Of a stretch of 64,000 bases of DNA, positions 54,618 through 64,000 are shown one piece after another. The first letter of the stretch is position 1; every line of letters starts with the position of its first letter. The notes under the pieces are model-generated. The model searched no databases, had not been told where the DNA came from, and saw only the letters and a program-made list of their open reading frames with translations. Both the position numbers and the translations under genes were made by a program. This DNA comes from an uncultured cyanobacterium. GTDB lineage: Bacteria > Cyanobacteriota > Cyanobacteriia > Cyanobacteriales > CAWUOF01. The stretch is taken from assembly GCA_963744145.1 (NCBI GenBank), contig CAVUSO010000001.1:6784001-6848000 (forward strand). Reading direction: 5' to 3'.

Positions 54618-56330
54618 ATGAGTTATTATATGGATCGTCGCGCTTATGCGGAAACCTATGGACCAACGGTGGGTGATCGCGTTCGTTTAGCTGATACAGA
54701 ATTATTTATTGAAGTTGAACAAGATTTAACTACCTACGGAGATGAAGTAAAGTTTGGAGGTGGGAAAGTTATTCGAGATGGGATGGGACAATCACCAATT
54801 TCTAATGCTGATGGTGCAGTAGATCTGGTAATTACCAATGCTTTAATTTTAGATTGGTGGGGAATAATTAAAGCCGATATTGGGATTAAAGATGGGAAAA
54901 TCCAGAAAATTGGTAAAGCTGGTAATCCTTATATTCAAGATCAGGTAGATATTATTATTGGTCCGGGAACCGAAGCAGTAGCTGGGGAAGGTATGATTAT
55001 TACTGCTGGAGGAATTGATACTCATATTCACTTTATCTGTCCCCAACAAATCGAAGTCGCGATCGCATCGGGAATCACCACTATGATCGGTGGAGGAACA
55101 GGTCCAGCTACAGGGACTAATGCAACTACTTGTACTCCCGGACCTTGGAATATCTATAGAATGTTACAAGCTAGTGACGCATTTCCAGTTAATCTCGGAT
55201 TTTTAGGGAAAGGAAATAGTAGTCAACCCCAAGGATTAATCGAACAAATCCAAGCTGGTGCAATGGGATTAAAATTACATGAAGATTGGGGAACTACACC
55301 AGCAGCGATCGATACTTGTTTAAGTGTAGCAGATCAATATGATGTGCAAGTCGCAATTCATACAGATACTTTAAACGAAGCTGGATTTGTCGAAGCAACG
55401 ATCGCAGCTTTTAAAGGTAGAGCAATCCATACTTATCATACCGAAGGAGCAGGAGGAGGTCATGCACCAGATATTATTAAAGTATGTGGTGAAAGTAATG
55501 TTTTACCTTCTTCAACTAATCCCACTCGACCATATACAGTTAATACTCTCGATGAACACTTAGATATGCTCATGGTGTGTCATCACCTTTCCCCCGCGAT
55601 CGCAGAGGATGTAGCTTTTGCGGAATCAAGAATTAGAAGAGAAACGATCGCAGCTGAAGATATTTTACATGATTTAGGTGCATTTAGTATGATATCTTCC
55701 GACTCTCAAGCAATGGGAAGAGTAGGAGAAGTAATTATTCGGACTTGGCAAACTGCCCATAAAATGAAATTACAAAGAGGTGTTATTAGTAATAGTCACA
55801 TGAGTTTAGCAGATAACTTTCGAGCTAAAAGATATATAGCAAAATATACAATCAATCCCGCAATCACCCATGGAATTTCTCAATATGTTGGTTCCGTAGA
55901 AGTAGGAAAATTAGCAGATTTATGTCTATGGAAACCAGCATTCTTTGGAGTCAAACCAGAATTAGTGATTAAAGGAGGTGCGATCGCGTATGCTCAAATG
56001 GGAGATGCTAATGCTAGTATTCCCACCCCACAACCAGTCCATAGTCGTCCCATGTTTGGGAGTTTTGGAGGTGCGATCGGTGCTACTTCTTTAACATTTA
56101 TATCCCAAGCAGCATTAGAAACCGATATTCCGAGTCAATTAAAATTACAAAAACCAGCGATCGGAGTGTCGGGAACCAGACAAATAACTAAAAGAGATAT
56201 GAAATTAAATGATGCTTTACCTCACATAGAAGTTGATCCAGAAACTTATGAGGTAAAAGCTGATGGAGAATTACTAATCTGTGAACCAGCAACTATCTTA
56301 CCAATGGCACAAAGATACTTTTTATTTTAG
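54618..56330 (+). CDS. ureC: Urease alpha subunit
   Basis: [45 protein letters not shown]. Confidence 0.98.
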
Positions 56331-56333
56331 CAT

Positions 56334-56990
56334 ATGTTTATGGTTTATACCTCGGCAACTGATCTATCTGAATTACAGCGATCGCTTATTCCAGAAAACC
56401 GTGTGTCTCTTCATGTCGATTGGGAGGGTTATCAAACAATCCGTAAAATTTTAGGTGAAAACCGATCGGCTCATCTGACCTACTACAATGGTATTCTGGA
56501 GATTATGACTCCCTTAGAACTACATGAAAATTCCAGTGGGTTAATTGGTCAATTTATCGAGATTTTAACTGAAGAATTGAATCTCAACATCAAAAGCATG
56601 GAATCAACCACCCTCGATCGTCCTGGACTAAAAGTAGGAGCTGAACCCGATCAGGGATATTACATTATCAACGAACCTCTAGTCAGGGGTAAAACCGTCG
56701 ATCTCAACATCGATCCACCACCGGATTTAGTAGTAGAAGTTGACATCACCCACACCAATATCAACAAGAATATGCTTTACGCGGAGTTAGGAGTCCCTGA
56801 ATTCTGGCGCTATAATGGCAAAATTCTCAAGATTTATCATTTACAAAATGGTGAATATCAAGAAGTCCAAAGAAGCCCAACTTTTCCTAATGTTCCCAAA
56901 GAGCAACTTTATGAATTCTTGCATAATTGCGCTCAAAAAGGAGAAACCCAAGCAAAGCGAGACTTGAGAGTGTGGATTCGTAATATCTAA
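56334..56990 (+). CDS. Uma2 family endonuclease
   Basis: G.LEIMTP...HE, EPD..YYI, PPPDLVVEVDIT, YA.LGVPEFWRY. Confidence 0.88.
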   Translation: MFMVYTSATDLSELQRSLIPENRVSLHVDWEGYQTIRKILGENRSAHLTYYNGILEIMTPLELHENSSGLIGQFIEILTEELNLNIKSMESTTLDRPGLKVGAEPDQGYYIINEPLVRGKTVDLNIDPPPDLVVEVDITHTNINKNMLYAELGVPEFWRYNGKILKIYHLQNGEYQEVQRSPTFPNVPKEQLYEFLHNCAQKGETQAKRDLRVWIRNI

Positions 56991-57003
56991 GTGGATAATA
57001 GCT

Positions 57004-58131
57004 ATGCTGAAAAAAATTCAAATAAAAGGTTACAAATCCATTCGAGATATGGATTTAGAATTAACGGCTCTTAATGTTTTAATTGGTGCAAATGGAGTCG
57101 GGAAATCAAATTTTATTTCTGTTTTTAAATTACTCCGCTGGATGTTACAAAGTCCTGGACAATTACAAGTATTTATTGGTCAATCTGGAGGTGCAAACGC
57201 TTTACTGTTTGATGGAGCAGATATTACTCCCCAAATCCAAGCCGAATTAAATTTTGACACAGATGCCGGAAAAAATGATTACTTTTTTAGGTTGTTTCAT
57301 GCTGCTACCGATACTTTCATCTTTGCTGATGAAAAATATCGTTTTTCTCGTTCAACCTTTGATGGGTTAGCAGATTGGCAATCTTTAGATGGGGGTCATA
57401 AAGAATCTAAATTAATTGATTTAGCAAATCTTGGTACTTCTACGACTGCTAAAGTAATTTTAAAGTTACTTCAAAATTGTGCAGTTTATCAGTTTCATAA
57501 TACGTCAGAAACGGCGCGAATTAGACAAAAATGGAATATTGAAGATAGCCGTCATTTACGAGAAGATGGAGCCAATTTAGCTCCGGTACTTTTGAGATTA
57601 AAAGAAACAGCACCTCTTTATTATCAAAGAATAGTAGAAACCCTTAGGCAAATTGCACCATTTTTTCTAGATTTTGTCTTAGAACCGCTAAATTATTCGG
57701 TAATTTTACAATGGAAAGAACGTAATACCGATTTGATTTTTAGTTCTCATCAAGCTTCCGATGGTACATTAAGAACTATGGCATTAGTTACCCTTTTATT
57801 ACAGCCAGAAAACGATTTGCCTGATGTATTGATTTTAGATGAGCCAGAATTAGGATTACATCCTTATGCGATCGCTATTATTGGTGGCTTAATTAATAGT
57901 ATATCTCATCATAGTCAAGTAATTTTAGCGACTCAATCAACCTTATTAATTGACTGCTTTGAACCCGAAGATATTATTGTAGTTGAAAGAAAAGATCGTC
58001 AATCTAATTTTAAACGATTAGATTCACAAAATCTTCAAGATTGGTTAGAAGAATATTCCCTATCTGAATTATGGAATAAAAATATTATTGGTGGAAGACC
58101 TCAGAGGATGAGAAAAGTGTACAAAAATTAG
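57004..58131 (+). CDS. ABC-type AAA ATPase (AAA_21-like)
   Basis: GANGVGKS, SDGTLR, LDEPELGLHP, ATQS, LW.KN..GGRP. Confidence 0.88.
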   Translation: MLKKIQIKGYKSIRDMDLELTALNVLIGANGVGKSNFISVFKLLRWMLQSPGQLQVFIGQSGGANALLFDGADITPQIQAELNFDTDAGKNDYFFRLFHAATDTFIFADEKYRFSRSTFDGLADWQSLDGGHKESKLIDLANLGTSTTAKVILKLLQNCAVYQFHNTSETARIRQKWNIEDSRHLREDGANLAPVLLRLKETAPLYYQRIVETLRQIAPFFLDFVLEPLNYSVILQWKERNTDLIFSSHQASDGTLRTMALVTLLLQPENDLPDVLILDEPELGLHPYAIAIIGGLINSISHHSQVILATQSTLLIDCFEPEDIIVVERKDRQSNFKRLDSQNLQDWLEEYSLSELWNKNIIGGRPQRMRKVYKN

Positions 58132-58346
58132 TAGATTTTTGTAAAAAATATTCATCACCTGAATTGATTAACGATGGAGAAACCACTGCACCTTCTAAGC
58201 GAATTATTCAATTTATTCCTAGTTATAAAGGTGCCAAAGTTTCGGTAGCCCCTTTAATGGTTGAAAAAATTGGCTTACCAACAATTAGAAGTCAATGTCC
58301 TCATTTTGATGAATGGCTTATTCAGTTAGAAAAATTAAATAATTAG
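58104..58346 (+). pseudogene. C-terminal remnant of a DUF4276 family gene
   Basis: EDEKSVQKL...SPELINDG.TTAPSKRI...Y...K...IGL.TIR.QCPHF..WL; no start codon or N-terminal part. Confidence 0.72.
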
Positions 58347-58379
58347 TAAGAACGACATTGGTATCAATCAAAACTCGCA

Positions 58380-58604
58380 TTACTGATATTTCTCGGTAAT
58401 ATAAGTCAGGTAATCCTCTTTAACGCTAGCATCCCCCCCTATTAGCACCGAACTTTTTGCAACTCCTCTTAGCTGAGACAGGTTGCCCCGTTTTAACTTG
58501 GGATATGTTTCCCGTTTTAGCGATTCCAAAAGAGTTTGCACCAACTGCCAACGATCGCTGGTAGACAGCTGCAATGCTTGTTTTTGAACTTCTTGTAATG
58601 TCAT
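58380..58604 (-). CDS. Small antitoxin-like protein
   Basis: MTLQE...AL.LS..DRWQLV..LL, LRG.AK, Y..Y..EKYQ pattern. Confidence 0.55.
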   Translation of the reverse strand: MTLQEVQKQALQLSTSDRWQLVQTLLESLKRETYPKLKRGNLSQLRGVAKSSVLIGGDASVKEDYLTYITEKYQ

Positions 58605-58649
58605 CTTTGTAAAAACGTAGGTTTAGACTAAATTTGTGACTTATTAGCT

Positions 58650-58726
58650 TCATCTAATAATACCACCAAGTAACACATCTCCATCATGCCAAACTGCTGC
58701 TTGTCCAGGAGTAATCGCAAACTGAG
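58650..58726 (-). pseudogene. Isolated 3'-tail fragment of mnmA (copy A)
   Basis: QFAITPGQAAVWHDGDVLLGGII resembles the MnmA C-terminal TPGQ.AV.Y....LGGG.I motif. Confidence 0.72.
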
Positions 58727-58736
58727 TGGTATTTGA

Positions 58737-58762
58737 TAGGGGCGTATTGCAATACGCCCCTA
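58737..58762. repeat. Perfect REP-like palindrome
   Basis: TAGGGGCGTATTGCAATACGCCCCTA. Confidence 0.8.
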
Positions 58763-58849
58763 CCAAATACCATGATATTCTGTCGCTAATAATACATAAC
58801 GCTCTTGATAACGTTAACTTAAGTTTGACAATCATAGGGATAACTATAA

Positions 58850-59186
58850 TCAAGCAACTCCATATCCTGTATAAGGACGTTTATAAGGAGGATGTAAGCC
58901 CAAGACAATATCCTCTTTAGATACTCCCATCTCCACTAATGCTTGTCCAATATCTATTTCAGTCATATTGCGCTGAATCCAGAATCTTGTCATTCTTAAT
59001 ATCTAAATGAATAAAGCAGTTATAAACTCGCTTAAGACCATCCCAGCCCACATCTAATAACTGATAGTGGTCATGTTCTAGATCAAAAATTCGTTGGCAT
59101 TCAATGTCTGGATTTTCTTCTGCCATCATTGCTTGTTCATTGAGCAGTTGACGAATACATTGACGGTAATGTTCTAATCTCTCCAT
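58850..59186 (-). pseudogene. xisI: XisI protein, frameshifted by one extra base at ~58983
   Basis: FD...DHYQL..VGW...RVY.C.IHLDIK.DKI joined to WIQRNMTE.DI...LVEMGV.KEDIVLGLHPPYKRPYTGYGVA. Confidence 0.85.
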
Positions 59187-59211
59187 TCGATAATTACCTC
59201 CTATAAAAGGA

Positions 59212-59502
59212 TCATAGTAAAATACAATCTTTTAGCACTTGAGCGCGAATCCGGGATTTTAACCCAGATTCTGTGACTACATCTACTTTCCGCTCTAACA
59301 ATTGCTCTAAATCATCAATCAATCCTGTCGGAAACCATGATGAAATTTTTTCGATATCATAATCAATTAAAAGATCAATATCGCTATCTTCTGTTTCTTC
59401 AAACCTAGCTACGGAGCCAAATACTCGCACGTTAAATGCCCCGTGTCTTGCTGCTACTGCTAAAATTTTATCTCTTTTTTCGGTCAATTGTTCCAACAAC
59501 AT
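59212..59502 (-). CDS. Minimal nucleotidyltransferase (MNT-type antitoxin)
   Basis: VRVFGSVAR.E....SDIDLL, LE.LL.RKVDVV. Confidence 0.88.
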   Translation of the reverse strand: MLLEQLTEKRDKILAVAARHGAFNVRVFGSVARFEETEDSDIDLLIDYDIEKISSWFPTGLIDDLEQLLERKVDVVTESGLKSRIRAQVLKDCILL

Positions 59503-59576
59503 GATGATATTCTCCCCAAAGTTAATCAACTGTTACTAATAAGTTAACTCAATAATTACCTCCTTTTGAGGGTCAT

Positions 59577-59690
59577 GATCCTGTTCAATAATTCCATCAC
59601 CAATTAGGATATCTCCATCCTACCAAACTGCTGCTTGTCCAGGAGTAATTGCCAACTGAGATTCATCGAAAGCTATTTGTACATTCGGGC
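59577..59690 (-). pseudogene. Isolated 3'-tail fragment of mnmA (copy B, with a TAG)
   Basis: VQIAFDESQLAITPGQAAVW*DGDILIGDGIIEQ; 46/50 nt identical to copy A. Confidence 0.75.
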
Positions 59691-59778
59691 GATAATTTAT
59701 CACTTAAACTTTCACCCTTCTTCCAGAATCTCCCAAAATATCCTTAACTGAACCGGATTGAGTCCTAAATTATTAGAA

Positions 59779-60991
59779 CTAGAGCAAACCAAGTCTTTTC
59801 AAAGCATCTTCAGCTGCAAGTTTTTCAGCTTTCTTTTTACTATGATCTTTACCTCTACCATATTCATTACCAGCAACGTAAACTACAGCCGTAAATTCTG
59901 GATCATTATCAGTTCCACCAGAGCGAGTGGTTTTATATTCAGGAGGTTGACGGTTGGGATTACCCGAAAAATTGGGATCTAAAACGACTTGTTGTAACCA
60001 ACCTTTCACATCATCGTTAATTTTAGGTATCGCATCTTGGGTCGTAGGTAAATCGTTGACTACTGCTGCAAAAAAGGGGTTAATAAAATCACTGACTGCT
60101 TCAATTCCTGAATCTAAATAATAAGCACCAATCACTGCTTCAAATACATTACTGAGTAATGAGGTTTTCTGAACGTCCTCCACTCAGCTCTTCACCTCTT
60201 CCCAATCTCATCCATTTTCCCAGCTCTAATTCAGTAGCAAATTTGGCTAATTGAGGAGCATCAACTAAATTTGAACGTAAAACAGTCATTTTTCCTTCTC
60301 TTAAATCTGGATGATATTTATATAAAAAATCACCACTGATAAAAGTGAGTAGAGCATCTCCCAGAAATTCTAACTGTTCATTATCATCACCTTGATTGGG
60401 ATTTTCATATTTATAGGAAGTATGGGTTAAAGCTTGATTGAGCAAATAAGCATTTTCAAAAGGAATACGCTTCAATAGCTGTTCTAGTCTCTCTCTACTC
60501 CGAGCTTCCTCCGCTGAAGAAACAGTTCGAGAACGGTTTTCATGTCTGACTTGCTCTTGAGCTAAAAGACGGAGAACATCTTGTCGCTGTTTTTCGACAT
60601 CTTCCACTTGAGGAGCAGAAATAGATTTCAAGAACCGCAGCACACTATCGATCGCTCTATAGGTATCATCAGTGGAAAAATCAGATTGATGTGCCCACTG
60701 ATTTCGGACTGCAATTAACTCCTTCACTAGAGCTTGATCAGACTGACTCAGATGATTTTTGAAAACTTTGTCCTCCCGATTGACAATAGTTAATAATACC
60801 GACACATCCTCACGAATAATCTCATCGGTTTTTCGTTTCGATTTCTGCTGATTTTTAAAATATGAATTATCTATTTTTTTGATCCAATCTTTGTCATAGA
60901 CTGATGACATTTCTTGGTCAACATATTCATATAAACCTTGTCGCAAATGCTCTAAAGCTTTGCCAATTCTCTCCTTATTATTAATTCCCAT
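59779..60991 (-). pseudogene. Swt1-like HEPN domain fused to RNase III and dsRBD; one-base frameshift at ~60172
   Basis: RNQWAH (RxxxxH); ALTHTSY, NEQLEFLGDA, FEAVIGAYYLDSG; K..LQQ, P.Y, F...V.V, G...SKK.AE..AA..AL. Confidence 0.8.
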
Positions 60992-61247
60992 TAATTTACT
61001 CCAGCATAGTTGAGTGACTAACTAAATAGATGATCCTGGTTTGCTACGACAAGATTACCTTAACTATACTAATATATCATAAGTAAGCTCATAGTAGTGA
61101 GGCTGACCCGGTTTTAGCCGATCGCCCTGAACTACTTCTAGTTTAGAATATCTTGATCTAGTCTTTACAAATTCTTTATTTATCGATGATATTTTTTACA
61201 GAACAAAAAAACTTTTGCTCGTCTTCTCAGAACCATATTTGATGGTT

Positions 61248-61325
61248 GTCTAGAACAATAGCATCTGTAATAATACTGAGCATAATGGGCTAGTCTAGAG
61301 CAATAGCATCTGTAATAATACGGAG
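61248..61325. repeat. 33-bp direct repeat (period 45) upstream of a small secreted-protein gene
   Basis: GTCTAGA(A/G)CAATAGCATCTGTAATAATAC(T/G)GAG at 61248 and 61293. Confidence 0.8.
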
Positions 61326-61394
61326 ACAGATGGCATCAAACATGATGGAACTAAAATAGCTTTGTGGTAGTCTAAAAAAGTGTTGAGTTGAAAT

Positions 61395-61706
61395 ATGCTA
61401 TTTATGTTGAAAATAAGTGGATTAAGTCTCACTATCATTGCTGCTGCTGTTATGCTTCTACCTACTACCGCTCGTGCTGGAGAAGTCCTCGATCGAGAAA
61501 TTGATCAACAACATCGAATCGAGCAAGGAGTACGGAACGGTACTATTAATCGTCAAGAATATCGCAATCTTGAACGCCGCGAGGCATCAATTAACAGACA
61601 ACGACTGTATGATGACCGTCATGGGATGACACCAGCAGAAAGAGAACAGCTCAATCAACGCTTGAATCATCTTTCTCACAGTATCTACGAAGATAAACAC
61701 AATTAA
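61395..61706 (+). CDS. Small secreted helical protein
   Basis: Signal peptide ending ARA; RI.QG...G.I...E...L..R....; I...KHN. Confidence 0.75.
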   Translation: MLFMLKISGLSLTIIAAAVMLLPTTARAGEVLDREIDQQHRIEQGVRNGTINRQEYRNLERREASINRQRLYDDRHGMTPAEREQLNQRLNHLSHSIYEDKHN

Positions 61707-61752
61707 TTATTTATCTCATTTTTTAAATAGGTTTTTCTGTATATTCGTTAGC

Positions 61753-61795
61753 GATCGCGATCACCTGAGGATATCGGTGATCGCGATCTTTTTTT
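61753..61795 (+). terminator. Intrinsic terminator built on HIP1-like arms
   Basis: GATCGCGATCACC-loop-GGTGATCGCGATC followed by a T run. Confidence 0.75.
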
Positions 61796-62047
61796 CAACA
61801 TCGTCAATTAAGTAATGTCCCTCTGCCTAGATCGGGACAAAAAATGGTCAGCTTTCCCTAGCTAACCATTGGAAATTTTTGTTGTGTATTTTCTCTATTG
61901 GTAAAAACCCCAGACTGCACGTTCCCAAACTAGCAGTCAGTTTTAACCATACCTTCTATTCTAATAAAAGTGTAACACCAAACACTAAATTTTTGTTATA
62001 AAACTTAACATATATTGATCAGGAGAGACATAAATTTCCCTAATGAG

Positions 62048-62346
62048 ACGTTAGTTTGACGGACTGAGAAAGCTGAAAAAAAGCTGAGACTAGATTTTAA
62101 GAATTACGTCTCAGCCATGAATAACATTATATCACGTCTCGATATTACCCGAATATTTGATGCCGTAGACTATTTCTGTACATATTTTGAGCGCTATTAG
62201 CAAATTTTTTGGTCAATTTGCTAGCAGGACTAATTGCTTATACCTAGCAAGAGAAAAAAACAGAACTGGACTTGCTAGGGGCATACGCCCGTACCAAGGA
62301 TTACCAGCTCTACCTCCTGCTATCTTTTAGCTAAGTCAAATTGACT
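62048..62346 (+). mobile_element. Internally deleted IS982-family remnant
   Basis: Degenerate TIRs ACGTTAGTTTGAC / GTCAAATTGACT; transposase start MNNIISRLDITRIF..VD.FC joined to end NFLVNLLAGLIAYT*QEKK. Confidence 0.68.
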
Positions 62347-62382
62347 TCTATTTAGGCTGAATCGCCAACAGCTTTAATTTAT

Positions 62383-62976
62383 ACTGAACTTACCCCTATA
62401 AAAATGTACTAAATAGACATCAAATGCTTGTATAGAAAGCAATGCCGGATTTTGACCCTGCCCTAATTGTACACAGGCTTTTCGGAGTTTAAAAACTGTG
62501 GATTTAAAAATTAGACCAATTTATCATTATACAACTGCCCGAGTAAAATCTCATGTATTTCTATGTATGTTAGCTTACTATGTAGAATGGCAGATGCGTT
62601 CTCTTTTAGCGCCGATTCTGTTCGATGAAGATGATTGGGAAGATGCTCGACTTAACCAAAAATCTATTATTTGTGCTGCTGTTAGTAATTCAGCTAAAGC
62701 TAAGGCTAGAACTAAGGGCACGAAGGATGATCTACCTGTTCATAGCTTTCAAACTTTGTTAGCCGACTTGGGGACAATTGTGAAAAATAAAATTCAATCA
62801 ACTCTACAAGGTGCAAATTTTGTTTTTGACAAAATTACTGAACCTACTAGAGTCCAACAAAAAGCTCTTGATTTGCTTGGTATTTCCCTAATTTGTACCC
62901 ATTAAATCGATCCTAAAAATCTTTCAAACCCAAGCTAGTCATAGCAGATGGCTTTTGTCAAAGTGGGAAATTCAGG
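62383..62976 (+). mobile_element. Internally deleted IS1634-like element; transposase C-terminus at 62498-62905
   Basis: AFRSLKT.DL.IRPIYH....RV.SHVFLCMLAYYVEW; PT..QQKAL.LLG; ends CTGAACTTACCC / GGGAAATTCAGG. Confidence 0.75.
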
Positions 62977-63070
62977 TTAAAAACTTAGTTGTAGTATGTC
63001 TGAAGTGCGAAAAGTGGGTTAAAAAAGTAGGGACTTCAAAAACTGTTCGCAGCGCTGGTAATTGGCAACC

Positions 63071-64000
63071 CTAATCCTCTTTCTTACAAGCGTCAACCAG
63101 ACAGGACAGTACATTATTTGCAAGAATCTCTATCGTATCCCGACTGATTGAAGGTTCAGAAAATATGAAATTCAAAAGCATTTTTTCCTGAAAGGTTATG
63201 ACGGCAGCACTAAGCATTCCTCCAAACACAGCCAGTGCTGGAACATAGCTGATTTCTTCTAGTTTAAAGGAACCGTAACCTGTAGGAATATTTACTCGCC
63301 CAACGTTAGTTATTACTACTGTTACAGGAACTTTATTAGGTCTGGATATCAGAGACTCAAATATTTTTTTACCCATTAACACTGTACTAAAAATATCGTC
63401 TCGTTCCAACCCAACTTTTAACTGCTGTGTTACATCTTGCGCTAAATCCCAGAATGATGTACTTTTTCGTATACTGTGAAATGAAGTTAAGCTTGAAGCC
63501 AAAACCCCCAATGGTTCATCGCTCACAATCGGTTTTAGACGTCTCCGCAAATCAACATACGAGCGACAACTAACCCGGATTACATCTGTTTTTTTAGAAC
63601 CGGCAATTTTGGGAAATACTACCAACATTAATGCCGCGCATAAAGCACCTTGCATCGTTGCATTTTTTTGTCTACATAAATTTGCAAGTTGTTGAGTCAA
63701 AGTTTCATCTAGCTGTCTGCGAACGAACCCACAATAACGTAAACTAATAGGTACACATTTTTCAAAATCCATTGTTTTCGGTTGGTTCCAGATTAGCTGA
63801 AACTTAAGTTTAAACAAAAATAGTACACCTTTAATTTTACCTTTAATCCCTTTCATCGATTCAGGTAGTAATTCTTCAAGTGATGGAAGTGCAGGTAAGC
63901 TATCAATCTTGGTAATTTGTTCGCCCTCCACAAGTTTTTGACAGTAAGTAAGTAGCTCTGAATGCAGTCGAATGCTTGATAATCCATCAATTATAGCGTG
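63071..64000 (-). CDS. Condensation-domain / PapA5-like acyltransferase; 5' part outside window
   Basis: Frame is open to the window edge, beginning HAIIDGLS (HxxxDG); VDLRRRL.P, ITNVG. Confidence 0.75.
   Translation of the reverse strand, partial: HAIIDGLSSIRLHSELLTYCQKLVEGEQITKIDSLPALPSLEELLPESMKGIKGKIKGVLFLFKLKFQLIWNQPKTMDFEKCVPISLRYCGFVRRQLDETLTQQLANLCRQKNATMQGALCAALMLVVFPKIAGSKKTDVIRVSCRSYVDLRRRLKPIVSDEPLGVLASSLTSFHSIRKSTSFWDLAQDVTQQLKVGLERDDIFSTVLMGKKIFESLISRPNKVPVTVVITNVGRVNIPTGYGSFKLEEISYVPALAVFGGMLSAAVITFQEKMLLNFIFSEPSISRDTIEILANNVLSCLVDACKKED

Follow-up and report, generated by a model that had tools for sequence, protein, structure and literature searches.

We find that a gene on the minus strand of a 64,000-nucleotide stretch of DNA from an uncultured cyanobacterium (contig CAVUSO010000001.1, positions 6,784,001 to 6,848,000; hereafter the window) encodes a HEPN domain of the Swt1 type fused to an RNase III catalytic domain and a double-stranded RNA-binding domain (dsRBD), and that this fusion descends from a cyanobacterial RNase III gene of the rnc1 type, beside which such fusions often lie. 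RNase III is among the best-studied RNA-processing enzymes, and HEPN is the RNase head of many defence and toxin systems. The fusion family is best explained as an accessory RNase III, a third paralog of the cyanobacterial rnc1 type, to which a second nuclease head has been added. The architecture itself was published as a prediction in 2013, and the window gene is another member of it. In the assembly the gene is split by one extra base; in the organism it is probably intact. As to its function, we cautiously incline to a constitutive, homodimeric dual endoribonuclease that acts alone and is not a toxin gated by the minimal nucleotidyltransferase (MNT) encoded downstream.

Domain architecture of the fusion gene

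The features of the gene are collected in Table 1. An earlier reading of the DNA, made from the letters alone (hereafter the sequence-only reading), had called the three domains, the single-base split and the coordinates 59779-60991, and in all of these it proved exact against Pfam, the open reading frame (ORF) calls and the motif coordinates. The HEPN_Swt1 profile of Pfam scores 109 bits on ORF A, against a cut-off of 27.5, and is covered over the whole of its length (profile positions 1-115 of 115). The RNase III equivalog model TIGR02191 has a cut-off of 166.25 bits, which neither piece reaches by itself (110.8 and 85.4 bits); the pieces span model positions 7-106 and 103-219 and make up one RNase III gene cut in two. 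The frames of ORF A and ORF B meet at GGA GGA CGT [T] CAG AAA, where the bracketed T is the extra base 60172. In an alignment with intact homologs, both the start (MGINNKERIG) and the end (LKRLGLL) of the protein agree with theirs.

Table 1. Coordinates, in the window, of the fusion gene, its domains and motifs, and the MNT gene downstream of it
Feature	Position	Strand	Remarks
HEPN_Swt1-RNase III-dsRBD gene	59779..60991	minus	~403 codons read through; split into ORF A and ORF B in the assembly
ORF A	60991..60149	minus	280 aa; HEPN_Swt1 and first two thirds of RNase III domain
ORF B	60183..59779	minus	134 aa; last third of RNase III domain and dsRBD; overlaps ORF A
Swt1-like HEPN domain	60617..60961	minus	ORF A residues 11-125; Pfam PF18731, E 2.1e-31
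RNQWAH, HEPN Rx4H catalytic motif	60689..60706	minus	ORF A residues 96-101
Helical linker, then short low-confidence stretch	60467..60616	minus	Residues 126-175; from the AlphaFold2 model of homolog P0002
RNase III catalytic domain, N-terminal part, to ...SGGR	60173..60466	minus	PF14622, E 1.2e-23; PF00636, E 2.5e-14
RNase III signature NEQLEFLGDA	60353-60382	minus	ORF A residues 204-213
Extra base shifting the frame	60172	minus	Plus strand, one A of AA; coding strand, one T of CGTTCAG
RNase III catalytic domain, C-terminal part (QKTSLLSNVFEAVIGAYYLD...)	60076..60171	minus	PF14622; ORF B residues 5-36
Second RNase III catalytic site SNVFEA	60136-60153	minus	In the ORF B part
dsRBD	59791..59955	minus	ORF B residues 77-131; Pfam PF00035 (dsrm), E 1.3e-15
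MNT gene	59529..59212	minus	250 nt downstream of the fusion, same strand; no DUF86 partner beside it

Conservation of the catalytic residues

Using the 280-aa piece as a query, we retrieved 306 proteins at an E value of 1e-5 or better. Among the best 120 of these matches, 105 proteins have a length of 370-430 aa, and it is on these that the counts below rest; the 15 shorter ones were excluded. Intact full-length homologs, whose existence the sequence-only reading had left in question, thus proved plentiful, at about 400 aa and in many cyanobacteria. The closest, among the best 120 of the 306 matches, are 402-415 aa long and up to 75% identical. The named homologs come from cyanobacteria (Anabaena, Cronbergia, Nostoc, Microcoleus, Leptolyngbya and others), their annotation at source being 'ribonuclease III'. 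When the HEPN part was used as a query against a representative protein library, 1252 clusters were matched at an E value of 0.001, and 11 of the best 150 carry an RNase III module.

The conservation of the RxxxxH motif among homologs, a second point on which the sequence-only reading made its idea depend, is close to complete: the R is kept in 103, the N in 102, the W in 104, the A in 104 and the H in 103 of the 105 proteins, and R and H are invariant in two alignments of homologs. In the RNase III domain, 104 homologs retain the first signature E, and all 105 the second E, the D and the FEA Glu. The residue three positions before the FEA Glu, which is an Asp in many RNase III enzymes, is N in 96 of the fusions and otherwise S (6), D (2) or G (1), so that four of the five catalytic acidic residues are canonical. 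We take these five positions to be E38, E41, D45, D114 and E117 in the numbering of E. coli RNase III. Titles of Protein Data Bank (PDB) entries for Aquifex RNase III mutants (D44N, E110K/Q) agree with a catalytic role for D and E.

The sequence-only reading had remarked on the N as a departure from canonical Rnc, but it is no peculiarity of the window gene. At the same position, the genome's own rnc1-type gene has S and its rnc2-type gene D; among the rows of the tree described below in which the site was found, 9 rnc1-type genes have S and 6 have D, and 3 of 14 outgroup rnc genes have N. The proposal that N for D inactivates the RNase III domain was rejected, the substitution being a lineage trait. 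Judged by their motifs, both heads look catalytically competent.

Distribution and origin of the fusion

The window fusion is not the only rnc gene of its genome, a question that the sequence-only reading had raised: two further RNase III genes, one rnc1-type and one rnc2-type, lie elsewhere in the genome and score above the equivalog cut-off (225.6 and 183.8 bits). The HEPN_Swt1 domain of the fusion, by comparison, is the single one in the genome. We surveyed the order with a 170-residue HEPN query at an E value of 1e-20 or better across 401 genomes, among them the window's own (G000), and obtained matches in 80 genomes (83 rows). An intact HEPN-RNase III ORF was verified in 31 other genomes, where it scores 188-234 bits with TIGR02191, above the cut-off. 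There are three partial cases, namely the window's split copy, a contig-end fragment (G026) and a 328-aa variant (G189), which bring the total to 34 of the 401 genomes; the count does not extend to 13 of the 83 rows, whose frames measure 229-672 aa. In another 36 rows the frames are 1031-1179 aa long, and among these L169 was verified as HEPN_Swt1 joined to DUF499. The sole other genome of the window's own family gave no match.

The shortened variant (G189; L168:7913-8899, minus strand) keeps HEPN_Swt1 (E 4e-38, with RNNWVH as its motif) and the dsRBD, but an in-frame deletion has removed some 75 residues from its RNase III core (...LEFLGDAVFLDSG...). No stand-alone rnc1-type gene was detected in that genome either.

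To visualize the relatedness of the RNase III-dsRBD parts we built a quick maximum-likelihood tree of 61 rows, consisting of 60 of 123 distinct ORFs and the window sequence with an X at the break; the 63 ORFs left out are 5 fragments or duplicates, one fusion (that of G370) and non-cyanobacterial rnc genes beyond 14 hand-picked ones. The tree carries no bootstraps and its outgroup is not one clade, and we read from it only that the body is of the rnc1 type. All fusions group with cyanobacterial rnc1-type genes (SH-aLRT 85), and rnc2-type genes fall among the outgroups (100). A clade of rnc1 genes from Nostocales (100) nests among the fusions, and the fusion of one genome (G007) pairs as sister with a stand-alone rnc1 from its own family (98). 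In sequence identity, too, the RNase III modules of two fusions (G007 and G370) are as close to the rnc1 of the window's genome (74% and 73%) as stand-alone orthologs are. The window gene clusters with three other fusions (100) on a long branch of 0.48; all four genomes of this sub-clade keep a stand-alone rnc1.

The link to rnc1 is also seen in gene order. According to the sequence-only reading, the fusion has no housekeeping rnc neighbours in the window, and this holds. Among 31 loci of other genomes, a canonical rnc of 227-256 aa adjoins the fusion in 6, and a seventh has it two genes off with an NYN gene between. Free-standing NYN genes adjoin both rnc and the HEPN fusion in two loci (L133 and L161).

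Stand-alone rnc1-type genes were recognised from their frame length, the model span and the score, and none was found in 11 of the 31 fusion carriers, so that in these the fusion is the sole rnc1-type enzyme. The 11 include 7 of the 8 carriers in one family (f36), in which ten genomes not called as fusion carriers have a stand-alone rnc1; two of those ten have unexamined HEPN rows in the order survey.

The rnc1 body also carries another head. With rnc1 as the query, frames of 388-440 aa were found in 12 genomes of one family (f38), and one of 394 aa in a further genome (G299). Four loci that we fetched hold NYN-RNase III-dsRBD fusions of 386-436 aa (L170:2882-4042, minus strand; L171:2641-3801, plus; L172:2799-4109, minus; L173:2965-4125, minus), and Pfam confirmed the NYN head in two of the four (E 6e-24 and 5e-27). 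Therefore, one RNase III body carries two different nuclease heads in cyanobacteria. Six further genomes (G239, G253, G225, G089, G202 and G148) have frames of 403-441 aa whose first ~140 residues alone are covered by a match to RNase III (95-106 bits; model positions 8 to 140-145); these may be yet another RNase III-domain architecture.

Structure models

AlphaFold2 models the window's HEPN part (residues 1-160) as all helical, with a predicted local distance difference test score (pLDDT) of 91.5 and a predicted template modelling score (pTM) of 0.83. For an intact 403-aa homolog, P0002, modelled from a 22-row alignment, the pLDDT is 86.5 and the pTM 0.46. This model consists of a helical HEPN domain (residues 5-123), a linker helix (129-149), a hinge with a pLDDT below 50 (149-154), a helix (159-175), the RNase III domain and the dsRBD, the last being an alpha-beta-beta-beta-alpha element at 328-399. 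Foldseek places the body of P0002 on the solved RNase III structures 1o0w, 7r97 and 2ez6.

Comparing the model of the window's HEPN head with 48,161 representative chains by VIA-align, we obtained as the best match the C-terminal domain of yeast Swt1 (4pqz; Z 8.2, root mean square deviation 3.3 Å), aligned over 123 of 136 residues at 9% identity, with a Z score within the range that chance helical bundles reach. Other HEPN chains follow at Z 6.3-7.2 (the AbiF dimer 8vz6 at 7.2, 2hsb, Csm6 4rgp and 1wwp), within the range of unrelated helical bundles. Foldseek gave no match to the HEPN model at an E value of 0.001 or better, and a sequence search of the PDB with the HEPN part gave a best E value of 0.058, with unrelated rows.

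When two copies of HEPN residues 1-150 were predicted together from an alignment of our own, the pair reached an ipSAE of 0.47, against 0.02 for the best control. Of 30 proteins solved as pairs, 20 come up to this mark, and of 23 solved as single chains, 1 does. Between runs the agreement of contacts is 100%, and the partner has a pLDDT of 89. The predicted interface is formed by residues 82-94, 108-119 and 137-147, that is the lead-in helix, the next helix and the linker helix, and flanks R96..H101. The model supports pairing of the HEPN domains, short of demonstrating it.

Integrity of the window copy

We consider it fairly probable that the split at 60172 is an assembly error or a polymorphism, as opposed to a fixed pseudogene. 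A run of soil metagenome contigs (X1) holds the gene stretch with no base differences other than at 60172, where a contig of 155 nt (60128-60283, depth 2.5) lacks the extra base and is otherwise identical to the window. In addition, the window copy keeps 78 of the 79 columns that are conserved in at least 95% of the 105 intact homologs, and the median intact homolog likewise differs at one. The contig and the retained columns together make an assembly error, or else a change of very recent date, the probable cause of the break. Neither half holds a stop or another frameshift. A programmed frameshift was rejected, since all 105 full-length homologs are read in a single frame.

A true but very young pseudogene, in which the frameshift is real and the copy is decaying in this genome whatever the family does elsewhere, is the less likely alternative, to which we would give about one chance in four. 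The extra base does stand in the assembly sequence, and several observations count in favour of decay. The contig that lacks it is of low depth, and X1 is possibly the very sample behind the genome assembly, which makes the contig a hint and no independent proof. The single differing column holds a Trp in 103 of 105 homologs (W73 in P0002), which the window copy has lost by deletion; since a 562-nt X1 contig across the stretch shows no difference from the window, this deletion is probably real. Neighbouring genes are broken as well. The XisI gene 0.6 kb downstream of the fusion (58850-59186, minus strand) is split into ORFs of 75 and 47 aa, in comparison with the intact XisI of another locus (L125), by a one-base insertion near 58980 (AAG ATT [C] TGG ATT CAG), which is a second single-base frameshift within 1.2 kb of 60172 and fits an error-prone assembly and local gene decay alike. 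The genome, of 7.7 Mb, stands in 4 contigs. Of HEC-01B, a defence-candidate gene described below, only the last 60 residues are left. The otherwise identical contig, the 78 intact columns, the two halves free of further lesions and the confident model of the window's own HEPN part nevertheless speak against a pseudogene.

Function of the fusion

The reading that we favour, with a little more than even confidence, is that of a constitutive dual endoribonuclease, because both heads look competent, a dimer is expected at two levels, no conserved partner gene is found and the fusion occupies the place of the plain rnc1 in a third of its carriers. RNase III domains are known to dimerise; the fusion would form a homodimer through this domain and, as predicted here, through the HEPN domain and the linker helix. 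The RNase III-dsRBD body would bind and cut double-stranded RNA, and the HEPN dimer, with its two Rx4H motifs, would cut single-stranded RNA nearby, so that structured or duplex RNA may be cleaved at several places by one enzyme. Such a protein would be an enzyme of RNA processing or RNA turnover that needs no antitoxin, with host RNAs, or those of phages and mobile elements, as its possible substrates. In the sub-clade of the window, where a stand-alone rnc1 is always present besides and the fusion often lies among defence-candidate genes, a role in RNA-level conflict is plausible.

Evidence on partner genes comes from 29 homolog loci annotated with Pfam, over three genes on each side of the fusion in 20 loci and two in 9. 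No conserved partner gene was found across them. Within lineages, the fusion keeps a stable place among ordinary genes: five loci have the order HisK-Uma2-fusion-response regulator, three have MurE-glutaredoxin-like-fusion, and two have ValRS. In 9 loci a gene for Uma2 is at most two genes away from the fusion, and seven of the 9 are in family f36, in two syntenic contexts; XisI or XisH is near the fusion in 3 loci.

Several observations weigh against a constitutive enzyme. That the family cuts single- as well as double-stranded RNA is something we infer from its motifs. The absence of a stand-alone rnc1 is weak proof of replacement, because at least 98 of the 401 genomes have no rnc1-type match at an E value of 1e-40 and the plain enzyme is dispensable in the order. 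The distribution of the fusion is patchy. The nearest relatives of its HEPN head sit on DUF499 ATPases, which points to defence, as such ATPases are placed in operons resembling restriction-modification systems (Anantharaman, Makarova, Burroughs, Koonin and Aravind 2013, PMC3710099). Finally, the window's neighbours match candidates in PADLOC, namely the MNT gene (PDC-S09), a Uma2 gene (PDC-S17), an ATPase of the AAA_21 type (HEC-01A) and the remnant of HEC-01B, and the closest genome relative of the window (L123) has, directly upstream of its fusion, HEC-01A and HEC-01B as an intact pair.

The last three of these points are shared by the rival that survives best, although we regard it as unlikely, at about one chance in five: a defence toxin in which the RNase III-dsRBD part senses the double-stranded RNA of phages or mobile elements and sets off cleavage of single-stranded RNA by HEPN, with abortive infection as the outcome. 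The case for it is strongest in the fast-evolving sub-clade of the window, with its long branch and its stand-alone rnc1 in all four genomes; in 3 of these 4 cases the fusion lies among toxin-antitoxin-like or defence-candidate genes. On the other side, the families of PADLOC-DB 2.0 gave no match at an E value of 0.001 to ORF A, ORF B or intact P0002, the synteny among ordinary genes is stable within lineages, and the HEPN part is predicted to dimerise by itself without a trigger. That the fusion is the sole rnc1-type enzyme in about a third of its carriers weakens the case for a toxin gated by double-stranded RNA in particular.

Somewhat less probable still is a one-protein sensor and effector, in which the RNase III-dsRBD dimer would dock on long double-stranded RNA of phages or mobile elements and thereby position or activate HEPN, the rnc1 body being a chassis with swappable single-stranded RNA nuclease heads (HEPN_Swt1 or NYN) that replaces the plain enzyme in some lineages. 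If this were true, the fusion would be a one-protein bacterial counterpart of RNase systems triggered by double-stranded RNA.

It is improbable, in our estimate, that the HEPN head is non-catalytic and serves an ordinary RNase III as an extra dimerisation or RNA-binding module that alters its choice of substrate. The predicted HEPN-HEPN interface would by itself stabilise the dimer, and Anantharaman and co-workers infer a loss of the catalytic motif in the HEPN domains of eukaryotic Swt1, which may only bind RNA (PMC3710099). Against this, the near-invariance of the motif, with R and H each kept in 103 and N, W and A in 102-104 of 105 homologs, is hard to explain without catalysis, and the shortened variant described above keeps its HEPN domain and dsRBD although its RNase III core is deleted.

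The sequence-only reading had suggested the MNT as a possible antitoxin, and this we regard as very improbable. Pairing of HEPN with MNT is a known theme, the MNT gene lies close to the fusion on the same strand with no DUF86 partner of its own, and complexes of HEPN with MNT (6m6u and 7ae9) are among the weak rows of the fold searches, but an MNT gene is found within three genes of the fusion in 1 of the 29 other loci (L141), where it is on the opposite strand, convergent and likewise without a DUF86 partner; the HEPN head is of the Swt1 and not the DUF86 type; and the window MNT scores 39.8 bits against an MntA cut-off of 60 and matches PDC-S09 (E 3e-36), a single-gene candidate, so that its type is one recorded as standing alone.

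Other features of the neighbourhood

The AAA_21 ATPase of the window (57004-58346, plus strand) matches HEC-01A at an E value of 7e-140 and is followed by the HEC-01B remnant, which is of the DUF4276 type and corresponds to profile positions 172-227 of 230; the partner thus looks truncated. In seven loci of family f36 (L126, L127, L130, L165, L166, L128 and L134), the gene directly upstream of the fusion, and on its strand, codes for Uma2 (PF05685; PDC-S17 type in PADLOC); HisK and response regulator genes flank the pair in one context and ABA4-like and GGDEF genes in the other, as if the gene pair travels together.

Between the fusion and a divergent gene at 61395, the window holds two copies of a 33-nt direct repeat (61248-61325, plus strand), 45 nt apart, whose core is found nowhere else in the 7.7-Mb genome. 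A type III toxin-antitoxin system, with an RNA-repeat antitoxin, was considered and rejected, as upstream repeats are not conserved among the homolog loci: an upstream repeat stands far above shuffled controls in 2 of 29 other loci (L128 and L162), and the sequences are unrelated. A stretch of 29 nt (76% identity) is found upstream of the starts of both XisI and MNT (59174-59202 and 59536-59564), ending on the plus strand in AATAATTACCTCCT, which on the coding strand is an AGGAGG ribosome-binding-like site.

An Rfam scan of 55000-64000 gave nothing near the fusion gene. It gave a partial match to 5_ureB_sRNA (55000-55059, minus strand; 38.8 bits against a gathering score of 40), which is cut by the start of the search range and lies inside the gene for the urease alpha subunit, where it may merely reflect conservation of the coding sequence. 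A promoter scan returned 9 promoter-like sites against 9.5 expected, and a terminator scan none. The GC content along 50-64 kb ranges from 0.34 to 0.40, with no distinct island.

Comparison with known systems

What the analysis adds to the architecture in print is the descent from an rnc1-type gene, the frequent adjacency to rnc1, the position as sole rnc1-type enzyme in about a third of carriers and the parallel fusion to NYN. If confirmed at the bench, the fusion would show bacteria adding to RNase III another nuclease of different chemistry, RNase III leaving a 5'-phosphate and a 2-nt 3' overhang and HEPN a 2',3'-cyclic phosphate, and it would be a tractable model for the coupling of double-stranded RNA recognition to single-stranded RNA cleavage. 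For the window itself the message is modest: its gene is an ordinary member of the family, and the toxin-antitoxin account of it is unsupported.

The closest known system is the 'two-headed RNase' of Anantharaman and co-workers, composed of HEPN, RNase III and dsRBD and exemplified by gi 119489560 from Lyngbya (PMC3710099). It has the same order of three domains and comes from the same phylum, and as far as its description there goes nothing essential sets the window gene apart; the window copy carries the one-base split and is without one of the conserved residues, a Trp. The authors predict that the HEPN and RNase III heads are both active and make multiple cleavages in double-stranded RNA targets, and their passage on this protein offers a prediction without experiments, distribution or a link to rnc1. 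Our search of the literature on HEPN-RNase III found no further relevant paper beyond that description, besides a methods review, and no experiments on the fusion. A 2022 review of cyanobacterial RNases (PMC10989914), in the part that deals with these enzymes, gives plain RNase III and Mini-III genes alone for the model strains, with the HEPN fusion unmentioned there.

With canonical Rnc (TIGR02191, rnc1-type) the fusion shares the E..E...D signature, the FEA site, the dsRBD, the fold (1o0w, 7r97 and 2ez6) and the grouping in the tree. It differs by ~175 extra N-terminal residues, made up of HEPN and linker, and by an N before FEA where many Rnc have D and the rnc1 of its own genome has S. In the NYN-RNase III-dsRBD fusions the same rnc1-type body bears a PIN-like NYN head of ~150 residues instead of HEPN.

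The head itself is nearest to that of the HEPN_Swt1-DUF499 ATPases (Ava_2192 family). The resemblance of the N-terminus to such proteins, noted in the sequence-only reading, is borne out by the 36 frames of 1031-1179 aa, the heads of which are 38-47% identical over ~145-161 residues and have the same RNxWAH motif, with the verified locus L169 among them; in the DUF499 family the C-terminal module is an AAA+ ATPase of ~950 residues in place of RNase III and dsRBD. [quoted passage not shown] Lastly, the window resembles the type VII toxin-antitoxin system HepT/MntA in that a gene for a HEPN-superfamily RNase lies beside one for a minimal nucleotidyltransferase. HepT, however, is a DUF86-type HEPN of ~130 aa, whereas the window HEPN is of the Swt1 type and fused to RNase III, the adjacency to an MNT gene recurs in a single one of 29 loci, and the window's own MNT scores below the MntA cut-off.

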